Assembly (NCBI GenBank): GCA_051007895.1
Contig: JBPCYD010000336.1
Location: 1,194 to 65,193 of the forward strand
Direction of reading: 5' to 3'
Source of the DNA: Woeseiaceae bacterium
GTDB taxonomy: Bacteria; Pseudomonadota; Gammaproteobacteria; Steroidobacterales; Woeseiaceae
DNA length: 64,000 nt
Below are positions 13,233-29,295 of this stretch, piece after piece. A program made the position numbers and the translations under genes. Position 1 is the first letter of the stretch. Every line of letters begins with the position of its first letter. Below the pieces are notes generated by a model that was given only the letters and a program-made list of their open reading frames with translations, was not told the DNA's origin and made no database searches.

Positions 13233-14252
13233 CTAGCTTGCCTTGCGCATGACGTTGCGTCCTTCGCGTTTGGCCTGATACAACGCGTCATCGGCCCTGG
13301 ACAGCCAGCTTTGTGCTGATTCGCTACCGCGGATTTCTGCGACGCCCAGTGAGATTGTGACTGCACTATTGGGTACCAATTCGTTCACTTCGACTAGCGT
13401 GCGAAGTTGTTCAGCAAGATGGCAGGCATCTCCCAGGCTCTGTCCGTCGGCAACAACAACGAATTCCTCTCCACCGATTCGGAACAGGCTATCGTTCAGT
13501 CTCGTTCTCAGATTGACGATGCCGACGACTTCACACAGAATCTGATCGCCGACTGCATGTCCGTGTATATCGTTCACCTTCTTGAAGTGATCCAGATCGA
13601 GGACAATAAGCGACGTTGGCAGGCCATTGCGCTCATAAGCATTAATCACTTTTGCCAACTTAACCTGTAGTGCGCGCCGATTTCCGGCGCCGGTCAGCGG
13701 ATCCCTCGTCGCAAGATTCAGCAGCTTTTCCTGTTGCCTGTTATTGATGATGGTGAAGGCGAACGTGAACGCAGTTGTAAGCAAAATCGTGACCGCTACG
13801 GTGCCGGCCACAAACGTCTCCAGGTTCTGGAAAATTACAGGCGTGATAAGCACATTGAAGGTTACCGTGAGAGTGATCGCTTCGAACGGCTTCAGCAAAT
13901 AGAAACAGGCCAGTACCACAGGGAACGCCCAGTAAACCTGCTGCACACCGCCCACGTACATCGTCATTAGCGCGCCGGCAACGGCGATAATTGCGATCGC
14001 AATGCTTGCTCCGCGAACCCGTCGTGTCTTATAGATATAGACGCCAAGCCCTACCAGGCCGACAACGATGACGGTATCAATCGCAGCGACCACCCAGTCG
14101 CCGTCCAGCCATCGCACAACGACGAATGGCGCAACACCCAGGGCCCCTGCGGCACTCAATACTAGCGGCAGGTAACCGGTAAGAGTCTCTCTTGAGGCCG
14201 GCACCTGGGTTATTTCGTGCCACGATTCTATAGCGGATTTATGTCTCGCCAC
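13233..14252 (-). CDS. Membrane-bound diguanylate cyclase (GGDEF)
   Basis: About 5-6 N-terminal TM helices, then DPLTGAGNRR, GGEEF active site and an RLND (RxxD) I-site 5 residues upstream. GTG start with AAGGA upstream. Confidence 0.85.
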   Translation of the reverse strand: MARHKSAIESWHEITQVPASRETLTGYLPLVLSAAGALGVAPFVVVRWLDGDWVVAAIDTVIVVGLVGLGVYIYKTRRVRGASIAIAIIAVAGALMTMYVGGVQQVYWAFPVVLACFYLLKPFEAITLTVTFNVLITPVIFQNLETFVAGTVAVTILLTTAFTFAFTIINNRQQEKLLNLATRDPLTGAGNRRALQVKLAKVINAYERNGLPTSLIVLDLDHFKKVNDIHGHAVGDQILCEVVGIVNLRTRLNDSLFRIGGEEFVVVADGQSLGDACHLAEQLRTLVEVNELVPNSAVTISLGVAEIRGSESAQSWLSRADDALYQAKREGRNVMRKAS

Positions 14253-14401
14253 GCACTATTCCTTTAGAGATGCCACACGCTAATTGGGCGGAATTTGAAG
14301 GATAAGAATAGCATCAAACTGCATCAGGACAGCGAAGGTTTCGTTGCGTGGGCTTCAAATGACCGGGAATCGGGCCGCGTTACCGGAGCCAATTTTACAT
14401 A

Positions 14402-15724
14402 TTATTCCGTACCCCACTTTGTCTCGACTTTAATGCCGATTTTCTGGAGAAACCCGGTCGGGAGAATTCCGCCGGCAGAGATAATGACGGCATCATTGCG
14501 AATCCGGGCCTGCTTTTCGCCCAGCGCAATGACGACTGAGTCGTCTCGAATTTCTTTCACATTTGAATTGAGAACAACCTGTACGCGCTTCGCGCGACTC
14601 ATCGATTCTATTTTTTCCCTGTTCTTTTGCTTCGCCCGGCTAAACGCACCGGAGCGGTAAGACAATGTGACAGTCGTCCCCTCTTCTTCTGCGATACTGG
14701 TCGCCGCCTCGAGAGCGCTGTCGCCTCCACCAACGACCAGCACATGTTGATTGCGGTACTGCTCCGGATCAATCAGGCGATAGGTCACTTTAGGCAGATC
14801 CTCGCCGGGCACCCCGAGTTGCCGCGGTGAGCCACGCCGTCCAATCGAAAGAAGGACAGCACGGGTGTCGTATTCGGCCCTGTTCGTGGTTACCCGGTAA
14901 CCGATCCGGCCTTCTGCTGGCACGATTTCGTCCACGCGCTCATCATAGTTGATTGCGATTCCGGTCTTCTTTTCCACGCCCTGCCAGAAGTCGATGAGAT
15001 CTTCTTTCTGTACTTCCTTGAATTTGGTTTTGCCGATGATGGGCAGTTCTGCAGGCTGTGTCATGACGAGCTTGCGGCGCGGAAAGTGAGCGACGGTTCC
15101 GCCCAGCTCCTCCTGCTCCACGGTAACGACCTTCAGGTTGTCGACCTTGGCCGCCAGCGTTGCTGAAAAGCCTGCGGGGCCGGCACCAACGATCAGCAGG
15201 TCCAGCTCGTTGCTGTGTCCCTCTGCAAGCAGCTGGCTAATGGACGCCATCGCCTGACGACCTTGCTCAATGGCGTTGCGAATTAGCCCCATGCCGCCTA
15301 ATTCGCCCGCAATAAAAATACCGGGCATGTCCGTTTCGAAATTCGGTTTGACGACGGGAAGATCGATACCGCGGGTAGCCGTACCGAATACAAGTGTAAT
15401 CGCGTTTACGGGACAAACGGTCTTGCAGGCACCATGGCCGATACAGTCTGAGGGCCCAATCAAACGGGCCTTTTTGCCAATCATCCCGAGCACGGGATGC
15501 GCATCCTGCTCGGGACAGGCCACCACGCAGGATTTGCAGCCAATGCAAATGGTCGGGTCGATTTCCGGGTGCAGGGTCGGCGGCTCAAGCATACCGGCTT
15601 CCGTTGCCGCCTTTAACGCCTCCAGGCTTTCCCGTTCCAGGCGATTATGACGACGGATATACCAGGCCACGATGGCCAGGATGGGCAAAACGTACAGGTA
15701 GGTTAGGGAGTCCGGATTAAACAT
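14402..15724 (-). CDS. Membrane-anchored 2x[4Fe-4S] ferredoxin domain fused to an FAD/NAD(P) pyridine nucleotide-disulfide oxidoreductase-like domain
   Basis: N-terminal TM helix (YLYVLPILAIVAWYI), cluster motifs CIGCKSCVVACP and CIGHGACKTVCP, dinucleotide folds VGAGPAG and VGGGDSA. The start is uncertain: ATG at 15724 versus TTG at 15811. Confidence 0.7.
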   Translation of the reverse strand: MFNPDSLTYLYVLPILAIVAWYIRRHNRLERESLEALKAATEAGMLEPPTLHPEIDPTICIGCKSCVVACPEQDAHPVLGMIGKKARLIGPSDCIGHGACKTVCPVNAITLVFGTATRGIDLPVVKPNFETDMPGIFIAGELGGMGLIRNAIEQGRQAMASISQLLAEGHSNELDLLIVGAGPAGFSATLAAKVDNLKVVTVEQEELGGTVAHFPRRKLVMTQPAELPIIGKTKFKEVQKEDLIDFWQGVEKKTGIAINYDERVDEIVPAEGRIGYRVTTNRAEYDTRAVLLSIGRRGSPRQLGVPGEDLPKVTYRLIDPEQYRNQHVLVVGGGDSALEAATSIAEEEGTTVTLSYRSGAFSRAKQKNREKIESMSRAKRVQVVLNSNVKEIRDDSVVIALGEKQARIRNDAVIISAGGILPTGFLQKIGIKVETKWGTE

Positions 15725-16089
15725 TTGTTTGCAGTAACGAGTCTTGAGGAAAGCATATCGCGGCCAAGAACAAAGCTCATGAAGCAGTTCACGCAACGGA
15801 AATTCTGACAACCCGCTACAGCGAGTCGACGTCTCGAACGCTCGCTAGCGGTGATTTTTTCTGCCTGTTTTTCGTTTCTCCGTGCGAATGATTCTCATTG
15901 CACCAAAAACTGTCGCCAGTGTGCGACACACATCTGATTTTATTAAGAATATCTGTGACACAGGGGAACCAAGACGAATGACAGAACGTGTATTTATACA
16001 AGGTACACGGACACGGCACCGGATGAGAGTTTCGTTGCCGTACCGCGTCAAGAAAAATCGTTGGTTTGTTTCAGATAAGGCTTGTGCAA

Positions 16090-16956
16090 ATGTCGATCAT
16101 GTTTTGGGGAATTGCGATTACGATGTTAGTTGTCGCGATAGGGGTGCTTGCAATACCCATGCGGGCGGGCAATGCCCGCCAGCCGATTATTGTCGTTATG
16201 CTGCTGGTGCCTGCGATTGCCGTTGGGCTTTATTCGAACATCGGCTCGCCGCAGGCCGCCTCGTTGGGCAGCGATGACAGGCAGGCCCAACCTGCAACGA
16301 GTGGCTCTGCCACAAACCGCGCAGCACAATCTCGTTCAGGACAATCTGTCGGCTCTGTCGCGAGCATGTTAGCGGGACTCGAAGGACGATTGGAACGCGA
16401 ACCGAACGATGCCGGAAGCTGGTTACTACTGGCAAAGTCATACCAGCATCTCAACCGGCTCGAAGATGCCGTCGCAGCCTACGAACGAGCGAGCGAGCTC
16501 GGAAAAAGTGACGTTGCCCTGGAAAAGTTGCTCGTCGAAGCCGGACAGGTAATCCAGCCTCCTGCAGATGATAGCCGCCCCGCGTTGCGTGGCCGGGTAT
16601 CGCTGTCGGCCGATGCCGATGAACTGGTCAGTCCTGATGACACCGTATTCATATTCGCAAAAGAATCTCGCGAACACCGGATGCCGGTCGTTGCTTTGCG
16701 CAGGCCCGCATCGGAATTGCCGCTTGATTTTATCCTGACCGACGACGACGCCATGGTCGCCGGCACGCGACTGGAGGATTACGAACAGCTCGTGATCACG
16801 GCGAAAATTTCACGATCTGGTATGGCGACAGACGCGGTCGATGGACTTGAATCATGGAGTGAAGCTGTTTCTCCGCGCGATCAACAGAAGATTGAACTCG
16901 TGATCACCGGAGGCGCCGCCGACGGTGCGCCAAATTCGGCAGACAACGATGAATGA
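16090..16956 (+). CDS. ccmI: CcmI/CycH-like c-type cytochrome biogenesis (apocytochrome chaperone) protein
   Basis: MSIMFWGIAITMLVVA... two N-terminal TM helices, a TPR segment (GSWLLLAKSYQHLNRLEDAVAAYERASELG) and a C-terminal block DTVFIFAKESREHRMPVVALRRPASELPLDFILTDDDAM...VITAKISRSG typical of CcmI. AAGG lies 9 nt upstream of the ATG at 16090. Confidence 0.7.
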   Translation: MSIMFWGIAITMLVVAIGVLAIPMRAGNARQPIIVVMLLVPAIAVGLYSNIGSPQAASLGSDDRQAQPATSGSATNRAAQSRSGQSVGSVASMLAGLEGRLEREPNDAGSWLLLAKSYQHLNRLEDAVAAYERASELGKSDVALEKLLVEAGQVIQPPADDSRPALRGRVSLSADADELVSPDDTVFIFAKESREHRMPVVALRRPASELPLDFILTDDDAMVAGTRLEDYEQLVITAKISRSGMATDAVDGLESWSEAVSPRDQQKIELVITGGAADGAPNSADNDE

Positions 16957-17857
16957 GGCGACTGCAGAGCGCGAATTTCCGCCCAACCCGCTGACGGGCC
17001 GGATCTTCGGCACGCGGGACAGCCGCCAGGGCAGCGCATTCTATGGCTACTCACTGACGACACTTGCAATCGGCATTGGCTGGTTGTTGCGCGACTATGG
17101 CCTGATCAATCCGGAGGAAGGTCTCGGGTACTGGCTCGGCATCATCGGCGGATCGATGATGCTGGTGCTACTCCTCTATCCCCTTCGGAAAAGGATAAAA
17201 GCGCTGCGTTTTCTTGGCGGCACGACGCGATGGTTCAGTGCGCACATGATACTCGGCATTGTGGGCCCCGTGCTCGTCCTGTATCACAGCAATTTCCAGC
17301 TTGGCTCGTTCAATAGCAGGGTTGCGCTGTACTGCATGTTGCTCGTTGCTGGCAGCGGGGTTGTAGGACGACACATCTATGCACACATTCATCGGGGTCT
17401 CTACGGGCAAAAAATCTCGCTGTCTGAACTGCGCAATGATCTAAATGACTCCCTGGAAAACAACCAAGGCCTCGCGACACTCCTGCCGGAGCTGACGGCG
17501 CGACTGAGCGTGCTGACGGCCGAGGTCCAGGGCGACAGCATCACAGGAGCGATGAGCACTCGCGCAAGCGTCATGTGGACCCTGAAGCAGTATTTCGTGT
17601 GGATATCGCTGCAATACACGGTTCATCGGGAGCTGAACGACCAGGCGGCAAGCTCTCCCGCTATCGCGAATGACCTGCCGCGACTCAAACGCACGAGCTT
17701 TGCCTATATACGAAATTTTGTTCGACTTACTGGGCGAGTAGCCCAGTTCACGCTGTACGAGAGACTTTTTGCGCTGTGGCACATCCTGCACATGCCGTTC
17801 TTTTTCATGATGGTCATTTCAGCCCTGATACACGTCCTGGCTGTGCATATGTACTGA
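16949..17857 (+). CDS. His-rich 5-TM inner-membrane protein (possible b-heme/quinone-linked module), family not recognised
   Basis: Four N-terminal TM helices, a ~110-aa soluble insert and one C-terminal TM. His residues sit within or at helix ends (SAHMILGIVGPVLVLYH, GRHIYAHIH, LWHILHMPFFFMMVISALIHVLAVH). The ATG at 16949 overlaps the ccmI stop by 8 nt. Confidence 0.6.
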   Translation: MNEATAEREFPPNPLTGRIFGTRDSRQGSAFYGYSLTTLAIGIGWLLRDYGLINPEEGLGYWLGIIGGSMMLVLLLYPLRKRIKALRFLGGTTRWFSAHMILGIVGPVLVLYHSNFQLGSFNSRVALYCMLLVAGSGVVGRHIYAHIHRGLYGQKISLSELRNDLNDSLENNQGLATLLPELTARLSVLTAEVQGDSITGAMSTRASVMWTLKQYFVWISLQYTVHRELNDQAASSPAIANDLPRLKRTSFAYIRNFVRLTGRVAQFTLYERLFALWHILHMPFFFMMVISALIHVLAVHMY

Positions 17858-17879
17858 ATCACCGTAAGCATTAACCAAC

Positions 17880-19448
17880 ATGACGGAGACAAGACGAGGA
17901 CTTTTTGGATTACTAGCGATGCTCGCAACAATCACAAGTTTGCCTGCGACTGCTCAGACCATTGAGTCGCTAGTCATGCCGGACGAAGTTATCGCGGGGC
18001 ATGCAGACATCGAGACCGAATGCTCCTTGTGTCACAAGGCGTTCAATCGATCCGAACAGCGTGCTCTGTGCCTCGATTGCCACGAGTTGGTCGCTATCGA
18101 TATAGAGCTGAATCTCGGCTATCACGGCAGAGCCAGTGACGCTCGTGAAGATGAGTGCGCGTCCTGCCACACCGATCACGAAGGGCGAGATGCAGAGATT
18201 GTCATTCTCGACGAAGAAGCCTTTGACCACGACTTCACGGATTTCGAACTGTTGGGTGATCACGCTGAGGCCGAGTGTATCGATTGCCATGTGCAGGAAG
18301 ACAAGCATCGTGACGCTGCAACCGAATGCGGCACCTGTCACGCCGATGACAAGCCACATGCTGAAGATCCCGCGGAGTTATGCACCGACTGCCACAACGA
18401 GTCCGGGTGGGACGATGTTCATTTCGACCATGACACAACGGATTACGAGCTTATCGGGAAGCATGCGGAGACCGCCTGCATTGACTGCCATGAAGTCGAG
18501 AAATTTGCCGACACGCCCGACAACTGTTTCGCGTGTCACGCCGAAGACGATGAACATGATGGACGCAGCGGCGAGCAGTGCGAAAATTGCCACAACCCCA
18601 GCGCGTGGAACGATTCGAGTTTCGACCATGAGCGCGACACGGACTTTTCACTGGTGGGACGTCACGCTGAATTGAGCTGTGATGATTGCCACAGTGACGA
18701 TCCCTTCAGTGATGAGATGGAAATGGCCTGTGTCGGTTGTCACCTGGAAGATGACGAACATGATGGTCACAACGGGACCGCCTGCGCCGACTGCCATTCC
18801 AATGACGCATGGACTGACAGCCAGTTTGACCACGCACGAGACGCTGACTATGCGCTAAACGGCTCGCACGCCGGGGTGGTCTGTGTTGACTGCCATATTG
18901 AACCTGTCTTCGAAACTAAATTGGAGCAAGACTGCGTGTCCTGTCACCGGGACGACGATCCACACAATGGTTCGCAGGGAAACGCCTGCGCCGATTGCCA
19001 CAATGAAACACAGTGGGAAGACGTTCCGTTCTTCGACCACGACCTGACCCGATTTCCGCTGCTCGGCGAGCACGGCAACATTGAATGCGAAGATTGCCAC
19101 GAGACGAAAGTATTCTCGGAAACCGAATCTGAGTGTCTTAGCTGTCACGTTGAGGACGATCCGCACGATGGCGTTTACACCGTTGAGTGCGAATCGTGTC
19201 ATAACCCTGTCGCCTGGGATCTGTGGCTCTTCGACCACAACACGAACACCGATTTCCTGCTTGGCGGCGCGCACCTGGATGTCGAATGCAGCGACTGCCA
19301 CAGAAGCTCCCTCCAATCCATGCAAAAGATCGGTGCTCGCTGCATCGATTGTCATCGAGCGGATGACATCCACGATGGAGAGTTCGGGCCAGACTGTGGG
19401 CGCTGTCATAGCGACACAACGTTTGAAGAAGTGAGGTCATTGCAATGA
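17880..19448 (+). CDS. 21-heme c-type cytochrome made of 7 tandem triheme (c7/c3-like) modules
   Basis: I counted 21 CXXCH motifs in 522 aa. There is an N-terminal signal peptide (cleavage near ATA-QT). FDH anchors at aa 115, 182, 248, 316, 385 and 451 give a ~67-aa module period, and each module carries at least 3 extra His. Confidence 0.95.
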   Translation: MTETRRGLFGLLAMLATITSLPATAQTIESLVMPDEVIAGHADIETECSLCHKAFNRSEQRALCLDCHELVAIDIELNLGYHGRASDAREDECASCHTDHEGRDAEIVILDEEAFDHDFTDFELLGDHAEAECIDCHVQEDKHRDAATECGTCHADDKPHAEDPAELCTDCHNESGWDDVHFDHDTTDYELIGKHAETACIDCHEVEKFADTPDNCFACHAEDDEHDGRSGEQCENCHNPSAWNDSSFDHERDTDFSLVGRHAELSCDDCHSDDPFSDEMEMACVGCHLEDDEHDGHNGTACADCHSNDAWTDSQFDHARDADYALNGSHAGVVCVDCHIEPVFETKLEQDCVSCHRDDDPHNGSQGNACADCHNETQWEDVPFFDHDLTRFPLLGEHGNIECEDCHETKVFSETESECLSCHVEDDPHDGVYTVECESCHNPVAWDLWLFDHNTNTDFLLGGAHLDVECSDCHRSSLQSMQKIGARCIDCHRADDIHDGEFGPDCGRCHSDTTFEEVRSLQ

Positions 19449-22156
19449 CTTTTGCAGAAATAGGTTTAGCGAGAGCGTCAGCGCGAGCCGAACATTTTGG
19501 TGTCGTCCTGCTGATTGCTGCACTGATTGTCACGGTATTCCAGGCACCGGCACACGCACAACAATCATTCGACCACTTCAGTACCGGATTCATTCTGGAC
19601 GGAGCACATACCAACGTCACCTGTGAAGGATGTCACGTCAGTGCGGCGTTTGGCCCGACAGACCAGAGTTGTACCAGCTGCCATTCTCAGGGCGGACTGG
19701 TGCGGGCATCCGCAAAACCAGTCAATCATGTATTGACGTCCGGGGAGTGCTCCGATTGCCACGTCACTGCGAACTGGAGTGCCATAGCCTACATGGATCA
19801 TTCTTCGATCACCGGAAGCTGCGCCACCTGTCACAACGGGATCCAGTCGACCGGGAAGACCCTGGATCACGTATCGTCAGGCGACCAGTGCGATGACTGC
19901 CATACGACCACGGCCTGGCTACCTGCAGTATTTGATCATAGCGGCGTTGTCGGCAACTGCGTGAGCTGCCATAACGGACTCAGTGCGACTGGAAAACACC
20001 AGGCACATATTGCCAGTGGCAATACCTGTGAAAACTGTCACACGACCATCGGCTGGGTGCCGGCCAACTTCGATCATGTGAACGTCTTTGGCAACTGCGT
20101 CAGCTGCCACAATGGCACAGACGCCACCGGCAAGAATCCGACGCACATCCAGTCAACCAATGTCTGCGAGGATTGCCATAGCCCAACAGTATGGATTCCG
20201 CCAATTATGGTCGACCATACGCAGGTTATAGGCACCTGCGGCTCATGTCATGACGGCACAACGGCGACCGGCAAGCACCCGACCCATATCGCCAGCAGCG
20301 ACAGCTGCGATGATTGCCACAGCACGATTGGCTGGGTGCCTGTCAATTTCGATCACGCAAACATCACAGACAACTGCTTTAGCTGCCACAACGGGTCGGA
20401 AGCCATAGGCAAACACCCGCTTCACGTACAGACAACGAACGTCTGTGAAGACTGTCACAGCACAAATGTCTTCTCGCCGGTAACGACTGTTGACCATACC
20501 CAGGTCATAGGTAGCTGCGCCTCATGTCACAACGGCACAGACGCGATCGGCAAGAGCGCCGCTCACGTACGAACAACGGACGTTTGCGAAGACTGTCATA
20601 CGACGGTCGCATTCGTACCCGTAACCATTGTCGATCATACCCAGGTGCTGGGGAGCTGCGGCTCCTGCCACGACGGGGTTACCGCGACGGGCAAAAACCA
20701 GGGGCATATCGCCAGCGGCAACAACTGCGACGACTGCCACAGCACGGTCGGCTGGTTGCCGGCCAACTTCGACCACGTGAATATCATGGGAAATTGTATC
20801 AGCTGCCATAACGGTGTTGATGCAACCGGCAAGGGACCCGCACATATCCAAACTACGGATGTATGCGAAGACTGTCATTCAACGAACGTATTTACGCCGG
20901 CAATGATCGTTGATCACACGCAGGTGCTCGGCACGTGCAGCTCTTGCCACAACGGTACGACGGCGACCGGCAAGAACCAGGGGCATATCGCCAGCGGCGA
21001 TACCTGCGACGATTGTCACAGCACGTTTGGCTGGCTACCGGCAAATTTCAATCACCTGAATATCATGGGCAATTGCATAAGTTGCCACAACGGCACCGAG
21101 GCAACCGGCAAGAACGTCGGGCACATCAATACATCTGACGTCTGCGAAGACTGTCATGCGACCAATGTATTTGCGCCGGTGATGACGGTTGATCATACGC
21201 AGGTGCTCGGCACGTGCAGCTCATGCCACGACGGCCTCACCGCCGTTGGCAAACATCCAACGCATATTCCCAGCGGCAATACCTGCGACGACTGCCACAC
21301 AACCGCAGGCTGGCTGCCCGCGACGTTCGACCACGCAACCATTACGGGTGGCTGCGTCAATTGCCACAACGGCGCTGACGCAACCGGTAAGAATCCAACG
21401 CATCCATTGACCACAAATGTCTGCGAGGACTGCCACTCCACTAACGTGTTCGTGCCCGTTATTGTGGTTGACCACACCCAGGTGCTGGGCGCGTGCGGAT
21501 CGTGTCACGATGGGGTTACGGCGACGGGCAAGTCGCCGAATCACATTACGAGCGGCAACAACTGCGACGACTGCCACAGCACAGTTGGCTGGCTGCCGGC
21601 CAACTTCGACCACGTCAATATTGCGGGTAACTGCTTCAGCTGCCATAACGGCACGGACGCAACCGGCAAAAATCCGACGCACGTTCAAACAACCAACGTT
21701 TGTGAAGACTGCCACACGACTAATGTGTTCGCGCCGGTATTCACGGTTGACCACACCCAGGTCCTGGGATCTTGCTCGACCTGTCACAACGGCGTATCGG
21801 CAGCGGGCCAGAATGCCGGTCACTTTAACACCAACGTCGAATGTGACGTCTGCCATACGTCAAATGGATGGACACCTGCGGACTATCGACATGCGACCCT
21901 GCCGTATGAACCGCAGGACCATCGCGGCAACCTGCAGTGTACCGAATGTCATACGCAGAATTCGGAGTTGATCCCCTGGCAGAACGCTGCGTTCCAACCT
22001 GACTGCGCGGGCTGTCATGCGAATGACTACCGACCCAACAAACACGAAGCTGCAAACGGTGGCAATGAGACTGTAAGTCAGAATCGCGATTGCGCGGGTG
22101 CGTGTCATCAAAAGAACAGTTTCCACAGAATTTCGGACTCGGGTTGGGACAGATAG
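19445..22156 (+). CDS. 36-heme c-type cytochrome: 3 N-terminal hemes, 15 tandem diheme (paired-CXXCH) modules, 3 C-terminal hemes
   Basis: I counted 36 CXXCH motifs in 903 aa. Signal peptide ...APAHA-QQ. The repeated unit is (F/V)DH-x7-C-x2-CH-(N/D)G-x3-(T/I)GK-x3-H-x6-C-x-(D/N)-CH. The start is an ATGA overlap with the upstream stop. Confidence 0.95.
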   Translation: MTFAEIGLARASARAEHFGVVLLIAALIVTVFQAPAHAQQSFDHFSTGFILDGAHTNVTCEGCHVSAAFGPTDQSCTSCHSQGGLVRASAKPVNHVLTSGECSDCHVTANWSAIAYMDHSSITGSCATCHNGIQSTGKTLDHVSSGDQCDDCHTTTAWLPAVFDHSGVVGNCVSCHNGLSATGKHQAHIASGNTCENCHTTIGWVPANFDHVNVFGNCVSCHNGTDATGKNPTHIQSTNVCEDCHSPTVWIPPIMVDHTQVIGTCGSCHDGTTATGKHPTHIASSDSCDDCHSTIGWVPVNFDHANITDNCFSCHNGSEAIGKHPLHVQTTNVCEDCHSTNVFSPVTTVDHTQVIGSCASCHNGTDAIGKSAAHVRTTDVCEDCHTTVAFVPVTIVDHTQVLGSCGSCHDGVTATGKNQGHIASGNNCDDCHSTVGWLPANFDHVNIMGNCISCHNGVDATGKGPAHIQTTDVCEDCHSTNVFTPAMIVDHTQVLGTCSSCHNGTTATGKNQGHIASGDTCDDCHSTFGWLPANFNHLNIMGNCISCHNGTEATGKNVGHINTSDVCEDCHATNVFAPVMTVDHTQVLGTCSSCHDGLTAVGKHPTHIPSGNTCDDCHTTAGWLPATFDHATITGGCVNCHNGADATGKNPTHPLTTNVCEDCHSTNVFVPVIVVDHTQVLGACGSCHDGVTATGKSPNHITSGNNCDDCHSTVGWLPANFDHVNIAGNCFSCHNGTDATGKNPTHVQTTNVCEDCHTTNVFAPVFTVDHTQVLGSCSTCHNGVSAAGQNAGHFNTNVECDVCHTSNGWTPADYRHATLPYEPQDHRGNLQCTECHTQNSELIPWQNAAFQPDCAGCHANDYRPNKHEAANGGNETVSQNRDCAGACHQKNSFHRISDSGWDR
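19793..21874 (+). repeat. In-frame tandem coding repeat with 138-141-nt half-unit and 279-nt full unit (diheme and tetraheme modules)
   Basis: VDHTQV anchor codons start at 20210, 20489, 20630, 20909, 21188, 21467 and 21746, giving spacings of 279, 141, 279, 279, 279 and 279. The first 47 nt of the units at 20909 and 21188 differ at 3 positions. An identical 32-nt run occurs at 20714 and 21551. Confidence 0.9.
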
Positions 22157-22162
22157 TCATCA

Positions 22163-24619
22163 ATGAGTGCCTGCTTCCAAAAACCGATAGCACTGCTTTC
22201 GTTAGTCCTTCTTTCAGCAGGCACATTTGCCGCCCCTGGCTTTATTGTTGGTTCGAAGATTAGGGGAGGCACGAATGTTGCCGAGATTACGATTCAATTC
22301 GCCTGTGCGGTTGAGTATGTCGATCATTTTCCGGCCAACGAATCCGATCGAGTAAGAATTCAAATCGAATCGACGACGTTGTGTAACGGCGTCCCGCCGA
22401 CTGTTGCCTACGCGCGCGAGCAACATCGGCCCGCAGATGCGGAGATAGCAAAGCTGCTTGAAATCACTTACGACGGCGAATCCGAGACCGACCAGGCATT
22501 AACACTGGCTTTTAGCGAAACGGTCAGCTTTGGAATCGAACAGAACGGCACGTCGAGCGACATGGTTATTCGCGTTTATCCAAACAAAGAAACGCAAGTG
22601 AAACAGCCGATTCCCCGATCTACCTCCGTGCGCACCGTCCAGGACACCGCTGAACCGTCATCCTATGTGATTAACCTGTCATCCAGTCAGATTCCACATG
22701 CACCGTCCGAAATGCAGGCCGTTTCTGTTTCAGCCGAACTCAAGGTTTTCGAATCTGAGGTCTTGCTTGCAGGTTCTACCTGGTATCGGTTGCGAGTCGG
22801 AACTTTCGAAAGCACCGGGGATGCACAAACCGAGCTTCGCAAACTACGTGCTCAGTATCCCGCGGCCTGGATTGACCGCGCACCGGAGTCGACGAACGGT
22901 GAAATCGGCAATGAACTAGCGGAAAGCGAACCCTTGCTCAATGACGCCGGTGACGTCGCAGCGGCCTTCGCGACGATGGGGCTTGATCAGATCGACCAAC
23001 TGATGGTGGACGCTCGATTGGCAATGGTGGCAGGTGAGACGTCCCGGGCTATACAAATTTACACCAAGGTTTTGCGAGGCCCATCCAGCGACCGGCACGC
23101 GCAGGCACAGGAATACCTGGCACTGGCGCGGGAAAAGAACGGACAAAAGGCGCATGCCAGGTCTGAATACCAGCGCTATCTGCAGCTTTACCCGGACAAT
23201 GAAGGTACCGCCCGGGTGCAGCAACGCCTCGCAGCATTGCTGGCCAGCGAGCGTCAGGTGGTGTCCGCCCCGGCAAGCACGCCGGGGACCGCAACAACCG
23301 GCAGAAGATCTGTTCGCAACCCGAGCGCTTGGCGGTTTCAGACGTTCTTTTCCCAGTACTATCGACGCGACGTCAATCAGCCCAACGAACAGGCTGACAT
23401 TGTCAGTCAGTCGGCACTCTATTCCGACATCAATCTGGACATCAGGCGGCGCGGCCAGAGATTCGATTTCAGCAGCAGGCTTTCTGCCGGCTATCGCAAT
23501 GATTTTCTCGACGAAGATCAGGGCTCGGGCGACCAGGCACGGGTTTCATATGCATACGCTGATCTTGCCGACGCCGAAACGGGACTGCGGGGAAGAATAG
23601 GTCGACAATCCAGAAACACCGGTGGCATCCTGGGCCGATTCGATGGTCTGAACATTGGCTACCAGGCAAGTGAACGCATACTGGTCAACGCAGTTGCGGG
23701 AATTCCGGTCAATTCAGCGTCAGACAGTATCGACTCTGAACGCACTTTCCAGGGATTGAGCGTCAACTACGGTCCGCTGCTCGACAACCTCGAGTTGGGC
23801 GCGTATTTCATTAGCCAGAGTATCGAGGGCATTGAAGATAGAACCGCGACCGGCGCCGAGTTTCGCTACTTTGGCGAGAACCACAACCTCTGGGGTCTCG
23901 TTGATTACGATACTTCGTACAGCGAACTTGGCAGTGCATTCCTGCAGGGCAGCTGGCGAGTGACGCCACGTCTCAGTGTACACGGCTCGGTTGACCGGCG
24001 GCACACCCCGTACCTGAGTTCGCGTAACGCGATGATTGGGCAACCAGTGCAAACATTCGCCGAGATGCTCGTGCTGTACTCCGAGGCCGAGATTCATCAG
24101 TTCAGCATTGACCGCTCGCCGCTCAGCGAGTCGTACACGATCGGATTGTCGCAGTCGTTCTCGCCCAGGCTGCAAATCAATTTTGATGCCAATCAAACGA
24201 CGATCGACGCTACGCCGGAATCGGGGGGTGTGTTGGCGATTCCGGAATCGACGTTTCGGTATGTTGCGACCACGCTGGTAGCAAGCAGCCTGATCACGGA
24301 AGGCGATGTACTGATGGTTTCTCTCCGGGCGTCAGATTCAAATACGACGAAGGTCTCCTCAATGACCCTGGATACTCGTTTCCCTCTGGGCAGATCCTGG
24401 CGTGTCAATCCGCGCCTACGTGTTGATCGACGACAAATTCTGTCCGATTCGTCCATTGAGTGGTTGTATACGCCCGGCCTGCGAATACAGATTCGTAACA
24501 GCCAGCGGTACCGCATCGATCTTGAGGCAGGCAAGCGTTTCTCGGAGCGCGACTCCCCAATACTGAATCTGGATCGCGAATCGTATTTCGTCAACCTCGG
24601 CTACCAGGTGTTTTTTTGA
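22163..24619 (+). CDS. Large outer-membrane protein: signal peptide, N-terminal beta-rich domain, SPOR-like domain, TPR region, C-terminal beta-barrel
   Basis: Signal peptide LLSLVLLSAGTFAAP. SPOR-like YVINLSS...WYRLRVGTFESTGDAQTELRKLRAQYPAAWI (about 22658-22876). TPR-like helices at about 22985-23236. About 430 aa of alternating amphipathic strands end in the OMP beta-signal NLGYQVFF. The start lies 6 nt after the cytochrome stop. Confidence 0.75.
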   Translation: MSACFQKPIALLSLVLLSAGTFAAPGFIVGSKIRGGTNVAEITIQFACAVEYVDHFPANESDRVRIQIESTTLCNGVPPTVAYAREQHRPADAEIAKLLEITYDGESETDQALTLAFSETVSFGIEQNGTSSDMVIRVYPNKETQVKQPIPRSTSVRTVQDTAEPSSYVINLSSSQIPHAPSEMQAVSVSAELKVFESEVLLAGSTWYRLRVGTFESTGDAQTELRKLRAQYPAAWIDRAPESTNGEIGNELAESEPLLNDAGDVAAAFATMGLDQIDQLMVDARLAMVAGETSRAIQIYTKVLRGPSSDRHAQAQEYLALAREKNGQKAHARSEYQRYLQLYPDNEGTARVQQRLAALLASERQVVSAPASTPGTATTGRRSVRNPSAWRFQTFFSQYYRRDVNQPNEQADIVSQSALYSDINLDIRRRGQRFDFSSRLSAGYRNDFLDEDQGSGDQARVSYAYADLADAETGLRGRIGRQSRNTGGILGRFDGLNIGYQASERILVNAVAGIPVNSASDSIDSERTFQGLSVNYGPLLDNLELGAYFISQSIEGIEDRTATGAEFRYFGENHNLWGLVDYDTSYSELGSAFLQGSWRVTPRLSVHGSVDRRHTPYLSSRNAMIGQPVQTFAEMLVLYSEAEIHQFSIDRSPLSESYTIGLSQSFSPRLQINFDANQTTIDATPESGGVLAIPESTFRYVATTLVASSLITEGDVLMVSLRASDSNTTKVSSMTLDTRFPLGRSWRVNPRLRVDRRQILSDSSIEWLYTPGLRIQIRNSQRYRIDLEAGKRFSERDSPILNLDRESYFVNLGYQVFF

Positions 24620-25224
24620 TGATCATAAATGCCAAGATATTCAAGCGATCCGGCATGTCCGGGCTTATCGGGCTAGTCGTCGTTTGCATCCTGGCTGGAT
24701 GCGCGGCATCCGCTCCTGAGATCAGGAACAAACTGGATCCGTCAACCGGGGTAACGATTACCTACAGCAGCGTGCCGCTGATCATGTATCGGGAAGACCC
24801 GGCGCAGGCGGCGTTCGCACGAAATTACGTACACGTCGGCCCGATCCAGGTAAATCGAAGTGGCAACTATCAGTATTTTCTGTGGCTTGGCGTATGGAAC
24901 AATATGCAGGATCTCAATTCAACGTCGCATCGGGACGGACTCGGCTCAATCGTTATTTTCGCCGATGGCGAACCGCTTTCGCTCGAGATAAGCGGCTGGA
25001 CACCGGACGCCATCGGCACGAGTGAGCCCGTTTACCTGAAGCCGGTTGCGTCATCCGCCGACGCCTACTACCGGGTTACTGCGGACCAGATCAGACTAAT
25101 TGCAGAGGCCACAGATATTCGCTTACGAACCTCGGGTGCAAAACCTCGGGAATTCGAGCCATGGGACGGTCAATTGGCCGCGCGAAACGATTTGCAGGAA
25201 TTTTTGCGGCGGACTTTATTCTAG
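24619..25224 (+). CDS. Small lipoprotein of unknown function (last gene of the cytochrome operon)
   Basis: MIINAKIFKRSGMSGLIGLVVVCILAGC lipobox. The start overlaps the stop of the outer-membrane gene (TGATG). No family recognised. Confidence 0.6.
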   Translation: MIINAKIFKRSGMSGLIGLVVVCILAGCAASAPEIRNKLDPSTGVTITYSSVPLIMYREDPAQAAFARNYVHVGPIQVNRSGNYQYFLWLGVWNNMQDLNSTSHRDGLGSIVIFADGEPLSLEISGWTPDAIGTSEPVYLKPVASSADAYYRVTADQIRLIAEATDIRLRTSGAKPREFEPWDGQLAARNDLQEFLRRTLF

Positions 25225-25274
25225 ATCGTTCAATTGCGATACGATGCAGCATCATATTCGTAACGAGCGTGACT

Positions 25275-26123
25275 ATGTCCGGCGACAGAAAAAACTACCG
25301 ACCGATGGAGGATTCCATCCGGACCGATCTGCAGGGAAGTATGCGCTACGGCGACTACCTGCAGCTCGACAGGATCCTGCAATCTCAACAGCCGCTGTCG
25401 TCAGAACATGACGAAATGCTTTTCATTATCATCCACCAGGCGAGCGAACTCTGGTTGAAACAGGCCTGTTTCGAAATTGCTGCCGCTATCGGCAACGTTC
25501 AAAACTCTAATTTCCGGCACGCATTCAAGGTCATCTCGCGCGTCAAGCAAATTCTCAATCAAATGGTCCAGTCGTGGGGCATTCTCTCGACGCTTACGCC
25601 GGTCGACTATCACAGCTTTCGCGACCGCCTGGGCAGCGCCTCGGGATTTCAGTCATATGGCTATCGGAAACTCGAGTTTCTGTTGGGGAACAAGAACGCC
25701 GATATTCTCAAGGTTCATAGGGATACTGGATTCGCCTATGAAGAACTGGAACGGGTTCTGCATGAACCGTCGCTTTACGACGAGGTGATCAGAAAACTGC
25801 ACGAGGCCGGCTTCGACATCGATTCGACCGTAATCGAGCGCGATGTCACACTGCCATACGAGCCGAATGACTCCGTCAAACAGGCCTGGCTGACGATTTA
25901 CAAAAACGCGGACAAAAACTTCGAGTTTTATGAGTTGGCAGAGAAGCTGGTCGATATAGAGGACGCGTTTCAGCAATGGCGATTCAAGCACATGTACACG
26001 GTACAGCGCATAATCGGCCAGCAGGTCGGAACCGGGGGTTCTTCCGGTGTCAGTTTCCTGAAGAAGGCGCTGGATATCAGCTTTTTTCCTGAACTCCTTA
26101 GCCTGCGTTCAGAACTCCCCTGA
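25275..26123 (+). CDS. kynA: Tryptophan 2,3-dioxygenase
   Basis: YGDYLQLDRILQSQQP.S..HDEMLFIIIHQASELWLK and GSSGVSFLKK blocks match bacterial TDO. The ATG at 25275 is preferred over the track start at 25161. Confidence 0.85.
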   Translation: MSGDRKNYRPMEDSIRTDLQGSMRYGDYLQLDRILQSQQPLSSEHDEMLFIIIHQASELWLKQACFEIAAAIGNVQNSNFRHAFKVISRVKQILNQMVQSWGILSTLTPVDYHSFRDRLGSASGFQSYGYRKLEFLLGNKNADILKVHRDTGFAYEELERVLHEPSLYDEVIRKLHEAGFDIDSTVIERDVTLPYEPNDSVKQAWLTIYKNADKNFEFYELAEKLVDIEDAFQQWRFKHMYTVQRIIGQQVGTGGSSGVSFLKKALDISFFPELLSLRSELP

Positions 26124-26172
26124 GAGCGAATCGCATTTACCTGGTTGATACCGGCATTGCGGAGAGGGCTCA

Positions 26173-27636
26173 ATGACTGCAGAAATCACCGACGTCATCA
26201 TCGTCGGTGCAGGACTGTCCGGTATCGGCTCAGCCTGCCACCTGCAACAGAAGTGTCCCGACAAACATTATCTGATTCTGGAGGGCCGTGAATCGGTCGG
26301 TGGCACGTGGGATCTGTTTCGTTACCCGGGAATACGATCCGACAGCGATATGCACACCTTAGGCTATGAATTCAAACCGTGGCGAGCGCAGAAAGCCATC
26401 GCCGATGGCCCTGCAATCCTCGACTACATTAAAGAGGCTGCCGCGGAACACCAGGTCGGGGAGCATATCCGCTATCAGCATCAGGTCAGGAAGGCTGACT
26501 GGTCCAGCGATGAGCATTTGTGGACGCTCGAGGTAACCGACAGCAAAACGGCTGCGGTCAAAAAATTCAAATGCAATTTTTTGCTGATGTGCGCCGGATA
26601 CTACGACTACAAGGGCGGATACGAACCGCAGATTAGCGGTCGAGCAGACTTTCAGGGCGACATTGTGCACCCACAGGAATGGCCGGAAGACCTGGGCTAC
26701 GGCGACAAGAATATAGTCGTGATCGGCTCCGGAGCTACGGCAGTAACGTTGATTCCGGAGCTTGCCAAAGAGGCTAAACACGTCGTGATGTTGCAGCGAT
26801 CGCCAACTTACATGGCATCCATGCCCGACACGGACCGCATCGCAAACTTCTTGCGCAAAGTACTACCGGAAAAATGGGCTTATACGGTAACCCGCTGGAA
26901 AAATGTCAAGCTCCAGCAGATCGTGTATTACAGTACCCGTGTCGCACCCAAATTCATCAAAAGAAAGCTAATCAAGCGGGTACGCAAGGAACTGGGCGAA
27001 AACGCCGATATCGAAAAAAACTTCACACCTCTGTATGACCCCTGGGATCAAAGACTTTGCCTGGTGCCCAATGGCGACCTGTTTGAGTCGCTACGGTCCG
27101 GCAGAGCTTCTGTCATAACAGACAAGATATCTGCGATTACCGCCAGCGGGATTCGCCTGGAATCCGGCCGTGAGGTTGGCGCAGATATCATTGTTACAGC
27201 TACCGGCCTTAGTTTGTGCCTACTTGGCGACGTGCAGGTCTCGGTTGATGGCGAATCGGTGAATTTCGCCGAAAAATACTCCTACAAGGCGATGATGTTT
27301 TCGGATGTGCCGAACCTGGTTTCAATCTTCGGTTACATCAATGCTTCATGGACACTACGAGCCGACCTCGTCGCGGACTATGCGTGCCGACTGATCAATC
27401 ACATGACGATCGCGAATTCCCGACAATGCACGCCTCGGCTGCGTGGAAGATATCGGGATATGAACGCAAAGCCGTGGATTGAAAATTTCTCGTCCAACTA
27501 CATTCAACGCAAGCAACATCTGCTGCCTAGACAGGGCGATCGTCACCCCTGGCTCAATACACAGAATTACTCAATGGAGAAGAAACTGATTCGCGACAGC
27601 GATGTCGTGGACGATGTCCTTGAGTTTCTCGGCTAG
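26173..27636 (+). CDS. EthA-like class B flavoprotein (Baeyer-Villiger) monooxygenase
   Basis: GAGLSG and GSGATA Rossmann motifs, BVMO fingerprint FQGDIVHPQEWP, and long colinear similarity to my recollection of EthA (GGTWDLFRYPGIRSDSDM, LQRSPTY, WDQRLCLVPNGDLF). GGAGAGGG RBS. Confidence 0.85.
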   Translation: MTAEITDVIIVGAGLSGIGSACHLQQKCPDKHYLILEGRESVGGTWDLFRYPGIRSDSDMHTLGYEFKPWRAQKAIADGPAILDYIKEAAAEHQVGEHIRYQHQVRKADWSSDEHLWTLEVTDSKTAAVKKFKCNFLLMCAGYYDYKGGYEPQISGRADFQGDIVHPQEWPEDLGYGDKNIVVIGSGATAVTLIPELAKEAKHVVMLQRSPTYMASMPDTDRIANFLRKVLPEKWAYTVTRWKNVKLQQIVYYSTRVAPKFIKRKLIKRVRKELGENADIEKNFTPLYDPWDQRLCLVPNGDLFESLRSGRASVITDKISAITASGIRLESGREVGADIIVTATGLSLCLLGDVQVSVDGESVNFAEKYSYKAMMFSDVPNLVSIFGYINASWTLRADLVADYACRLINHMTIANSRQCTPRLRGRYRDMNAKPWIENFSSNYIQRKQHLLPRQGDRHPWLNTQNYSMEKKLIRDSDVVDDVLEFLG

Positions 27637-27645
27637 AGACACGAG

Positions 27646-27676
27646 GCGCCCCGCTTAACTGTACGAGCCGGGGCGC
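27646..27676. terminator. GC-rich hairpin between convergent genes (possible bidirectional terminator)
   Basis: GCGCCCCG (27646-27653) pairs with CGGGGCGC (27669-27676) across a 15-nt loop. No clear U-tract on either strand. Confidence 0.4.
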
Positions 27677-27729
27677 GTCGCCTGTGCGTCGCCTGGATTC
27701 CAGAGTCTGGAATACCGTGGCGGTAGCAC

Positions 27730-29295
27730 CTATCGAATCATGGTTCGAGCGGAGCTGATACCCGGCATCTCCTTAAGCCTGGTTAACATTTCTTCCGCGG
27801 TCGCACTGTCTCCCGCGCCGGTGGCCGCTTTCGCCAGCCCTGAAATTGATGGCGTGCGCAGCGGTATCCATTGCAGCGATCGTTCATAGGCAGCCAGGGC
27901 CTCGACCGGTCGGCCTGCCGCCAGCAATATGTCGGCATGCAGCTCAACCGCAGGTTTCATCGGTACCGGCGGACCCGAGGGCGCCTTCATATCGCGCATT
28001 TCCATTTGTGCGGCCTCACGCGCATACGCGACCGCATTGTCCATGTCGCCACCGGCAAGGCTGAGCACCGCCATATTTTCCTTTTCAAGGATGGCGAGCT
28101 GCTTCGCAGCGTAATCGTTTCCGGCCGTTTCTGCTTTTTGACGCAGCATTGCGAGACGCGCAATAGCGTCTTTGGCAAGCGCATCGTTGCCACGATGTGC
28201 AGCACCCATCCCGACCACTGATACCCAGTTCGCATTGCTGCCCTCCACTGAATCGATTCCTGCGAGTTTGAAGTCACCCCAGTCTTCAGTTTCGAGGACG
28301 TGTCGCCCACGAATATTCAGGTAGCCGTTGTGGACTCTTGCAGAATCGGGATTGCGATCGAGGGTCGCCTTCGCCAGCTTAAGATCATCGGCCGCATCGT
28401 CAAACTGGCCCAGCATCAGGTAGGCGTAAGCACGCCATGACAGCGTATGAAAATCTTCCCGCCCTTCCGCAAGGCCGAACTTTTTGTTTACTGCAACCGC
28501 GGCGTTGTAGGCATCGATATTTGAGTCGACGACTTTCTGCCACTTACCAAGCTGCAGAAAAATATGAGAAGGCATGTGCAATGCGTGTGCGGCCGCCGGC
28601 GCAATACCGGCGTAAACCTCGGCGGCCGGCAATGCCAGGATCGCGTGATCGGGATCATCGAACGAATGAATGATGAAATGTGCAGCACCCGGGTGCTGTT
28701 CATTTTTCGCGAATACCGACTGGCTTATCGAAGCCGCCAGCGCCTGGCGTCGGTAACCCTGATCGCCCGGTCGCACCGTGCCCAGCAGCGACAAGGCATA
28801 AAATATTGATATCTCATCATCGTCAGGCCACCGCTCGTGCATGCGAGCCATATGTTCGGAATAGGCGAAGTCTCGCTGTAACTTGTCGCCCGGCGAGAAG
28901 TACAAAGTCTCAACCGCGGTCAGGAAAGCTTTTTCCTTTTCCGTTCCGGCTTTGGCCAGTCGACCTGCATGGGTTGGCGCCAGGCGTTTAAGCGCTGCAT
29001 TTGCCGCATCCATATCCTGCTGCGCCCACAGCGGGTGATTGTCGCTCATCGCCTGGCCCCAGTAGGCCAGTGCAAAAGAAGGGTCGACCTTTTGCGCTCT
29101 TTCGAAGGCGAAGCGTGCCTCGTCGAACTGGAAACTGTGTAACGCTTTTACGCCATCCAGAAAGTCAGTTTGTGCCGCCTTGGAACCCGAATTCGGGAAG
29201 CTGATACTGCCGAGCGACCCGTCCTGGGCAACGGCAATGCCGGATTGCATGAAAATCGCAACCAGGAAGTAAAAAATTGTTTTGCGAGCTGTCAT
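27730..29295 (-). CDS. Secreted TPR-like repeat protein of unknown function
   Basis: Signal peptide MTARKTIFYFLVAIFMQSGIAVA-QD. Helical repeat content throughout. GAGGAA RBS 7 nt upstream of the ATG at 29295. Confidence 0.6.
   Translation of the reverse strand: MTARKTIFYFLVAIFMQSGIAVAQDGSLGSISFPNSGSKAAQTDFLDGVKALHSFQFDEARFAFERAQKVDPSFALAYWGQAMSDNHPLWAQQDMDAANAALKRLAPTHAGRLAKAGTEKEKAFLTAVETLYFSPGDKLQRDFAYSEHMARMHERWPDDDEISIFYALSLLGTVRPGDQGYRRQALAASISQSVFAKNEQHPGAAHFIIHSFDDPDHAILALPAAEVYAGIAPAAAHALHMPSHIFLQLGKWQKVVDSNIDAYNAAVAVNKKFGLAEGREDFHTLSWRAYAYLMLGQFDDAADDLKLAKATLDRNPDSARVHNGYLNIRGRHVLETEDWGDFKLAGIDSVEGSNANWVSVVGMGAAHRGNDALAKDAIARLAMLRQKAETAGNDYAAKQLAILEKENMAVLSLAGGDMDNAVAYAREAAQMEMRDMKAPSGPPVPMKPAVELHADILLAAGRPVEALAAYERSLQWIPLRTPSISGLAKAATGAGDSATAEEMLTRLKEMPGISSARTMIR

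Follow-up and report, generated by a model that had tools for sequence, protein, structure and literature searches.

The stretch analysed here, called the window in the following, comprises 64,000 nucleotides from a Woeseiaceae bacterium (assembly GCA_051007895.1, contig JBPCYD010000336.1, positions 1,194 to 65,193 of the forward strand). The gene under study lies at 19445..22156 (+), starts with ATG and encodes a large multihaem cytochrome c of 903 amino acids with 36 putative haem sites. It belongs to a compact block of same-strand genes that overlap or abut each other and encode a CcmI-like protein, an inner-membrane protein (IMP), a cytochrome with 21 haem motifs, the 36-haem cytochrome itself, a protein of the outer membrane for which a barrel is predicted, and a lipoprotein. 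The start of the 36-haem gene overlaps the stop of the 21-haem gene within an ATGA, and a gap of 6 nt separates it from the barrel gene, an order that is the same in relatives. This context of IMP, 21-haem partner and barrel identifies the gene, on sequence grounds, as the large cytochrome of variable length (the "extracellular" multihaem cytochrome, MHC) of a PCC3-type porin-cytochrome cluster (PCC) in Woeseiaceae. An initial annotation of this DNA, made from the letters alone, did not recognise the operon context that marks the gene as such.

PCC3 clusters were described by He et al. 2017 (Front Microbiol 8:1584, PMC5566968) as a porin, an "extracellular" MHC with a median of 34 haems, a "periplasmic" MHC with a median of 21 haems, and an IMP. 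The large cytochrome is characterized by a low ratio of amino acids per haem, an enrichment of Thr, Ser, Ala and Gly, and internal repeats, and the IMP by a length of ~300 aa and five transmembrane (TM) helices with SGXXG on TM4 and WX3HX13H on TM3 and TM5; it has been proposed to bind two b-haems like a ferric-reductase domain (FRD) (PMC5566968). All four components are found in the window. The IMP has ~300 aa, the SGXXG motif and two WX3HX13H motifs, the partner cytochrome has 522 aa and 21 CXXCH motifs, within the 21-27 haems and ~66-aa repeats of the "periplasmic" MHC, and the large cytochrome has 36 sites in 15 tandem modules and three-haem flanks at 25.1 aa per haem. The adjacent gene encodes a predicted 22-strand barrel with the C-terminus ...YQVFF. 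The likeness thus extends from the four components to the density of ~25 aa per haem and to the motif spacing of 23-24 residues, and 36 haems lie near the published median of 34. In the PCC3 of the Riftia pachyptila endosymbiont, the 21-haem protein consists of seven 66-aa repeats and the repeats of the 39-haem protein start at 255, 278, 301, 324 and 348, which is a 23,23,23,24 rhythm (PMC5566968 supplement). Further published examples are Slit_0867-0870 and Slit_1446-1449 of Sideroxydans lithotrophicus ES-1 and the cluster of Leptothrix cholodnii SP-6 (PMC5566968). The large cytochromes of Gallionellaceae carry 10-35 haems and their partners 21-27, with long and linear AlphaFold2 (AF2) models (Hoover et al., PMC9900912), and Leptothrix PCC3 cytochrome subunits have 10-57 haems (PMC13386937). 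Woeseiaceae were not found as a PCC3 host in the PCC3 texts (PMC5566968, PMC9900912) or in nine searched supplementary files of He et al.

The 36-haem cytochrome and its repeat array

The 903-aa protein contains 35 strict CXXCH motifs and one CX3CH motif, CAGACH at aa 883-888. The 36 CXXCH motifs that had been counted initially are therefore 35 in the strict sense, and the number of 36 holds for haem sites once the CX3CH site at C883 is included. Since an alignment of 80 homologous sequences shows this site retained as CxGxxCH, it is probably a genuine haem site. All 72 cysteines of the protein lie inside haem motifs, and 43 of its 79 histidines lie outside them. In 2000 shuffled versions of the protein, CXXCH occurred 0.5 times on average and four times at most, so that a chance origin of the motifs is excluded. 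The composition is dominated by T (11.4%), G (9.1%), A (8.0%) and S (7.3%). An exact-sequence database look-up of the protein returned no record.

The polypeptide begins with a Sec-type signal peptide (aa 1-39, 19445..19561, +) that ends in ...APAHA/QQ and has no lipobox. It was read from the sequence, with a probable cleavage site after AHA, and the initial description of it is borne out by a hydrophobic helix at aa 11-31, followed by AHA/QQ, and by C60 being the first cysteine; the AF2 model likewise has a helix at aa 11-31, with low predicted local distance difference test (pLDDT) values after it. A non-repeat N-terminal region with the haem sites C60, C76 and C102 follows (19562..19789, +), then the array of 15 dihaem modules (aa 116-821, 19790..21907, +), corresponding to ~7.5 tetrahaem units of 93 aa, and finally a non-repeat C-terminal region (21908..22153, +) with the sites C832, C854 and the CX3CH at C883. 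The latter region is conserved in homologues, in which W809, H826, YxPxCAxCH and CxGxxCH are retained. The modules measure 46-47 aa each, apart from the last one, which is degenerate and has 55 aa. The three N-terminal haems, the 15 modules and the three differently spaced C-terminal sites had all been described correctly, and so had the two extra histidines that every module carries in conserved form, in xDH and GKxxxH. Judged from the sequence, there are enough histidines for a bis-His ligation of every haem. A catalytic multihaem enzyme could be ruled out, as CXXCK or another atypical catalytic motif is absent and a candidate distal histidine is available for every haem.

The modules are not all alike, which the initial annotation overlooked. 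Two types alternate along the array, type A with the consensus xVDHTQVxGxCxSCHDGxTATGKxxxHIxSGxxCDDCHSTxGWLPA and type B with NFDHxNIxGNCxSCHNGxDATGKxPxHxQTTxVCEDCHSTNVFxPVx, and they form a tetrahaem super-repeat. The mean amino acid identity between modules is 66% at lag 2 versus 48% at lag 1, and Tandem Repeats Finder detects a period of 279 nt (93 aa, four haems), of which 4.4 copies lie at 20528-21768. It is thus the tetrahaem A-B pair that forms the evolutionary unit. Within the array the motifs follow each other at 23,23,23,24 residues.

Family searches place the protein among the c3/c7-like cytochromes. Pfam Cytochrome_C7 matches with 168 bits in 15 stretches (cutoff 24.8) and Cytochrom_c3_2 with 142 bits (cutoff 25). 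The paired-CXXCH family suggested initially does match (Paired_CXXCH_1, PF09699, 99 bits in five stretches against a cutoff of 20.6), but as a label it is less informative than the two higher-scoring families. Further matches above their cutoffs are the doubled-CXXCH family TIGR01905 (36.6 bits, cutoff 25.2), the Pfam MtrC/MtrF II/IV domain (64.8 bits, cutoff 30) and the NCBIfam c7 "nanowire" domain TIGR04257 (67.5 bits, cutoff 40). Two narrower assignments were rejected. The DmsE/MtrA decahaem family TIGR03508 matches six stretches with 150.1 bits, short of its cutoff of 192.2, and the protein has 36 sites instead of ten. A trihaem c7 polymer of the GSU1996 type is not in keeping with a period of two or four haems, a spacing of 23,23,23,24 and a repeat of 279 nt. 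A phmmer search of the protein against the PDB gave a single weak match, 6r2q_A (E 1.8e-4), the aligned chain of which is multihaem with many CXXCH. The tool labels this chain "Cystathionine beta-synthase", which looks wrong; we take 6R2Q to be the Shewanella baltica Mtr complex with MtrA as chain A. In the AF2 model of the protein, the chain is strictly periodic with one short helix per CXXCH, at pLDDT 70-80.

As the coding sequence is tandemly repetitive, it has to be considered whether the array was expanded by the assembly, or whether the gene has decayed to a pseudogene without functional product. A gene-calling failure in a related metagenome-assembled genome (MAG) might be read in the same sense, since the source gene caller missed the 38-site orthologue on MAG contig L003 (7100-10000) and called four antisense open reading frames (ORFs) there. 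Long antisense ORFs also exist within the repeat array of the window, for example one of 211 aa at 21221-21856 (-), and such cytochromes may be under-annotated in MAG surveys. However, the copies of the array are at most 80% identical in DNA and share no exact repeat of 40 nt or more, and this divergence makes a collapsed or expanded assembly unlikely. The frame is intact with all motif Cys and His retained, and in an independent MAG (L001/L006, CAWKOQ01) the orthologue, 902 aa long, has an identical set of 35+1 sites and 90.6% amino acid identity. Between this orthologue and the gene of the window, 323 synonymous codon differences stand against 85 non-synonymous ones, an excess that shows purifying selection. 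We thus regard an artefact or a decayed gene, the former of which the initial annotation had named as a way in which its reading could fail, as practically negligible.

Partner genes and their variation among relatives

The IMP is encoded at 16925..17857 (+) and has 310 aa with ~5 hydrophobic helices as read from the sequence; since its orthologues have ~302 aa, the true start may lie a few codons downstream. Its motifs are W103-x3-H107-x13-H121, S144-G-x-x-G148 and W285-x3-H289-x13-H303, and 53 representatives at ~31-66% identity to it share the four histidines, SGxxG and W285 without exception. The family is large, with 2450 representatives at E<=1e-3 (50%-identity clustering level), and the IMP has no family match in Pfam or NCBIfam. 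A search of its family profile against the PDB gave only chance matches to helical proteins and no homology to solved FRD-type proteins. It is the motif pattern, together with the proposal of He et al., rather than detected homology, that makes the IMP a putative dihaem-b electron carrier.

The partner cytochrome (17880..19448, +) consists of 522 aa with 21 CXXCH, arranged in seven ~67-aa trihaem repeats with a motif spacing of 17/18/33. Its signal peptide (17880-17960) shows a twin-arginine-like TRRGLF motif, which is unexpected for a c-type cytochrome and probably coincidental, as these proteins are normally exported by Sec. On the other side of the 36-haem gene, the outer-membrane protein (22163..24619, +) has 818 aa and ends in ...GYQVFF. 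After a signal peptide it comprises a beta-sandwich (aa 28-139), a SPOR domain (166-241) and a TPR region (274-362), the latter two recognized by Pfam, and then a predicted 22-strand beta-barrel (aa 390-818, 23330-24616, +); the N-terminal extension of aa 1-389, with its peptidoglycan-binding SPOR domain, corresponds to 22163-23329 (+). The AF2 model, built with a 48-sequence alignment, has a pLDDT of 79.9, and Foldseek matches it to the outer-membrane barrels OccAB, AlgE, FimD/PapC and TonB-dependent receptors in the PDB with E ~1e-8. The porin stop is overlapped by 4 nt by the gene of a 202-aa lipoprotein (24616..25224, +) with the lipobox LAGC and Ala at +2, for which no Pfam or NCBIfam match was found.

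At its upstream end the block starts with a CcmI/CycH-like protein (16066..16956, +) that combines a pair of TM helices at its N-terminus with a TPR region and a CycH Ig-like domain (Pfam Ig_CycH, 83 bits; TPR_CcmH_CycH also matches). Its gene overlaps the IMP gene downstream, and it probably serves the operon, with its 57 haems to be attached, as an apocytochrome chaperone of its own. The PCC3 texts consulted describe the outer-membrane component only as a porin. Compared with published PCC3 clusters, the N-terminal beta-sandwich, SPOR and TPR parts of the porin, the CcmI-like gene, the lipoprotein and a flanking Fer4-FAD gene, which is described below, are additions that those papers do not mention.

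Relatives were collected by a profile search of a genome collection with a 12-sequence IMP alignment, from which the 80 closest species-level loci were taken; the Sideroxydans and Leptothrix references are not among them. These loci stem mostly from Woeseiaceae, followed by Chromatiaceae, Steroidobacteraceae, Emcibacter and Rhodospirillales, and the porin homologues at 55-87% identity bear Woeseia or Woeseiaceae names. In these loci, and likewise on MAG contigs, the genes recur in the order IMP, 21-haem cytochrome, variable cytochrome, porin and small lipoprotein. The lipoprotein gene follows the porin in 51 of the 62 loci with a detected porin, and a CcmI-like gene was detected beside the IMP in 50 of the 80. 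The first cytochrome has 21 haems in nearly all loci. The second one could be counted in the 54 loci with one intact ORF between the first cytochrome and the porin, and it ranges from 5 to 74 sites with a median of 30.5. The comparison of module numbers that had been proposed initially therefore reveals a wide variation, and this variation proceeds by whole modules: orthologues that have 27-39 CXXCH, when aligned pairwise, reveal clean indels of 46, 47 or 94 residues inside the array. In 52 of the 54 loci the number of CXXCH is odd, which agrees with a constant, odd number of haems outside the repeats and a further 2n haems from the modules.

It was further claimed that the haem count is among the highest for a single polypeptide, and this could not be upheld. 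More than 36 sites are found in 18 of the 54 syntenic orthologues (35 have fewer), and 58 of the 120 best matches of a homologue search have more than 36 CXXCH, up to 58. A count of 36 is thus mid-range and not exceptional. For the same component, He et al. 2017 (PMC5566968) report, next to the median of 34, extremes of 63 haems in Amphritea and 85 in Agromonas. The Kaarinaea lacus homologue (P0110) was set aside as an orthologue, as it has a different gene context and a PKD-like domain. In three loci an extra gene for a 26-haem cytochrome was noted downstream of that for the lipoprotein (L066 13852-16353, L067 16144-18636, L075 16087-18597). It occurs where the second cytochrome has only five haems or is missing, and it may be a displaced or alternative outer wire.

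A Rhodocyclales MAG provides a betaproteobacterial counterpart. In its cluster, the IMP carries the motifs, the partner has 24 haems, the other cytochrome has 40+1 sites and the porin is homologous, and the cluster is related to that of the window gene by gene (IMP 37%, MHC1 38%, porin 26% identity with E 9e-56). A CycH-TPR gene is found there downstream of the porin, not upstream of the IMP. Published betaproteobacterial PCC3 also has a 24-haem partner (PMC9900912).

The cluster is followed at 25161-27636 (+) by genes for a tryptophan 2,3-dioxygenase and an FMO-like flavin monooxygenase, which are probably unrelated to it; the dioxygenase lies downstream in only 2 of the 80 loci. A GGDEF diguanylate cyclase is encoded at 13233-14252 (-), next to the flanking Fer4-FAD gene on its far side, and a GGDEF-EAL protein at 60028-62232 (-). 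Among the 80 loci, five have a detected GGDEF neighbour, and only in the closest MAG (L006) does it adjoin the cluster. No operon boundaries were revealed by promoter and terminator scans of 14000-27800, which remained at or below shuffle expectation.

A probable trans-envelope conduit and the direction of electron flow

We consider it likely that the 36-haem protein is part of a trans-envelope wire that links cellular redox pools with extracellular partners. After export by Sec, it would be loaded by the Ccm machinery with up to 36 covalent bis-His c-haems, probably assisted by the CcmI-like chaperone. The 15 dihaem modules could then stack into one continuous, thinly insulated haem chain. 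At ~0.8-1 nm per haem, as in MtrA and GSU1996, this chain would measure ~30 nm and that of the 21-haem protein ~17-20 nm. Both cytochromes would act in series, the 21-haem protein as the fixed periplasmic span for which its invariant length makes it suitable, and the dihaem-b IMP as the connection at the inner membrane. The haem chain would thread or dock at the 22-strand barrel, which would be tied to the peptidoglycan by its SPOR domain, and the SPOR and TPR domains of the porin might dock the periplasmic wire. Since the module number of the 36-haem protein varies freely, from 5 to 74 sites, as if no fixed distance had to be matched, this protein may well project outward. The arrangement looks like a wire of fixed length paired with an evolutionarily adjustable one. 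The redox partners would be insoluble or distant, and examples might be Fe/Mn minerals, conductive particles and other cells. The extended haem wire that was envisaged initially agrees with the literature proposals for this protein class (PMC5566968, PMC9900912).

Several points weigh against such a conduit. The 36-haem protein lacks a lipobox, and no secretion-system component was found among the ~30 window ORFs scanned against Pfam. Its AF2 model, based on an 80-sequence alignment, is only moderately confident (pLDDT 68.9, predicted TM-score (pTM) 0.29), although a low pTM would be compatible with an elongated multidomain chain, and a Foldseek search with it against the PDB gave no significant match (best PpcD, E 9.5); the model could not be assigned to any known cytochrome fold. 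The 22-strand barrel is also smaller than that of MtrB, which has 26 strands. The PCC3 assignment was made from the features published by He et al. 2017, with the ES-1 and Leptothrix references compared by description, and the PCC3 papers themselves regard the function as unverified (including PMC13386937). Both PCC3 clusters of Sideroxydans ES-1 are down-regulated on Fe(II) (PMC8788666), and PCC3 expression in strain CL21 did not follow iron oxidation. Finally, the direction of flow that is favoured below is drawn from synteny and thermodynamic reasoning only.

The first of these points would equally suit a protein that never crosses the outer membrane and serves as a periplasmic capacitor or redox hub, with the barrel being used for anchoring or for solutes. 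The protein has a plain Sec signal, a capacitor role has been mentioned by Hoover et al. (PMC9900912), and the localisation labels in the PCC3 literature are software predictions (PMC5566968, PMC9900912). On the other hand, the 21-haem neighbour already provides an invariant, periplasm-spanning length, whereas its 36-haem counterpart varies ~15-fold in haems. The coupling to the barrel gene is tight and invariable, and the periplasm could house a rod of ~30 nm or more only in a sideways position. We therefore judge a purely periplasmic store to be quite improbable and return to the trans-envelope conduit.

With respect to the direction of flow, the most relevant gene lies upstream of the block and is transcribed divergently from it. 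At 14402..15811 (-), a membrane-anchored 2x[4Fe-4S]-FAD/NAD(P) oxidoreductase is encoded, as indicated by Pfam, NCBIfam and PDB relatives. An N-terminal TM anchor is combined in it with a 2x[4Fe-4S] ferredoxin domain and a thioredoxin-reductase-like FAD/NAD(P) domain, and its PDB relatives are YpdA, TrxR and TrxR-type FNR. This gene is found within ~4 kb upstream of the gene that encodes the IMP in 63 of the 64 loci with enough upstream DNA, nearly always on the strand opposite to the cluster, and with 52-90% identity its product is the best-conserved protein of the neighbourhood. It flanks the cluster across Gamma- and Alphaproteobacteria as well as in the Rhodocyclales MAG (L086 5493-6791, -). 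The text of He et al. does not contain ferredoxin, FAD or 4Fe-4S in connection with PCC3 and mentions an Fe-S gene only for PCC4 (PMC5566968). Synteny suggests the Fe-S flavoprotein as a candidate for the redox partner of the IMP on the cytoplasmic side.

We favour an export of electrons to extracellular acceptors, possibly reversible, because of this conserved low-potential NAD(P)H/FAD/Fe-S partner in combination with a sediment habitat rich in Fe/Mn oxides, and because outer-membrane cytochromes have been reported mainly in sediment-derived Woeseiaceae MAGs (PMC12175321). A stricter version would regard PCC3 not as a quinone-linked iron oxidase, but as a split NOX/FRE-like trans-envelope exporter in which electrons pass from the NAD(P)H oxidoreductase to the dihaem-b IMP and on through the 21-haem wire and the 36-haem wire to extracellular acceptors. 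Woeseiaceae would in that case possess a quinone-independent electron disposal onto minerals or partner cells. This split arrangement appears rather doubtful to us. Fusions of the IMP with Fer4 or FAD domains, which would support it, do not occur among ten longer IMP homologues, the N-terminal extensions of which contain a SPOR domain, an ANAPC3 (TPR-like) match or no match, and the missing homology of the IMP to solved FRD-type proteins gives no support either.

The opposite direction corresponds to the model of He et al. 2017, in which electrons from Fe(II), reduced minerals or cathodes pass via the two cytochromes and the dihaem-b IMP to the quinone pool and permit lithotrophic growth. The architecture could in principle run either way, like MtrCAB and MtoAB, and Woeseiaceae include facultative chemolithoautotrophs. 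PCC3 was moreover discovered in the Fe(II) oxidisers Sideroxydans, Leptothrix and Gallionellaceae, and the literature regards it as a candidate iron oxidase (PMC5566968, PMC9900912, PMC13386937). Against this stand the response of the ES-1 clusters to Fe(II) described above and the fact that most PCC3 hosts are not known iron oxidisers (PMC5566968). Also the near-universal NAD(P)/FAD/Fe-S neighbour points to a low-potential cytoplasmic partner, the reduction of which from Fe(II) would be uphill. An inward conduit is a serious, though less probable, alternative in our view, and export remains the direction that we favour for the conduit.

Significance and comparison with known systems

The 36-haem gene is neither a record-holder nor a new kind of protein, as PCC3 has already been described. 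PCC3 clusters are widespread and encode some of the most haem-dense proteins known, and the locus is a clean and intact example from Woeseiaceae. These bacteria are cosmopolitan in marine sediments, and in the surface layer of such sediments they rank with the most abundant ones. Should they really rely on the conduit, the cells engaged in extracellular electron transfer in surface sediments could be far more numerous than the classical metal reducers. For sediment MAGs of Woeseiaceae, a recent survey mentions no more than generic "mtrCAB-like" cytochromes (PMC12175321). The main additions of the comparative data are the pair of a fixed and a variable wire and the conserved Fe-S flavoprotein neighbour. 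The former sharpens the idea of a fixed 21-haem span that is combined with an outer wire growing or shrinking by dihaem or tetrahaem modules, and the latter may define the electron source or sink.

With MtrCAB and MtoAB the cluster would share the general layout of two cytochromes, one periplasmic and one outer, and a barrel in the outer membrane, and its modules resemble MtrA/DmsE in sequence. The differences are considerable. In those systems (Shewanella, Sideroxydans) a decahaem cytochrome of the MtrA/DmsE family lies inside the MtrB barrel and the decahaem MtrC outside the cell, against 36 and 21 haems here, and the putative outer cytochrome of the window has neither a lipobox nor the beta-barrel domains of MtrC. 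The barrel is predicted to have 22 strands and no homology to MtrB was seen, and a putative dihaem-b protein takes the place of CymA at the inner membrane.

The dodecahaem protein GSU1996 of Geobacter, together with GSU0592 and GSU2210, resembles the 36-haem protein in that a single polypeptide is built from tandem c3/c7-like domains that would form a linear haem chain. The unit of these polymers is the trihaem c7 domain, in contrast to the two- or four-haem repeat of 46-47 or 93 aa found here; a trihaem period is seen instead in the neighbouring 21-haem protein. To our knowledge, the Geobacter c7 polymers are periplasmic and not encoded together with such an IMP and barrel.

The extracellular cytochromes OmcS, OmcE and OmcZ of Geobacter would be the functional parallel, with long-range conduction along stacked c-haems outside the cell. 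Similarity to them was detected neither by the PDB sequence search nor by Foldseek, and the principle of construction is different. OmcS, OmcE and OmcZ are non-covalent polymers of subunits with 4-8 haems each, whereas the wire encoded in the window would attain its length by tandem duplication within one polypeptide.

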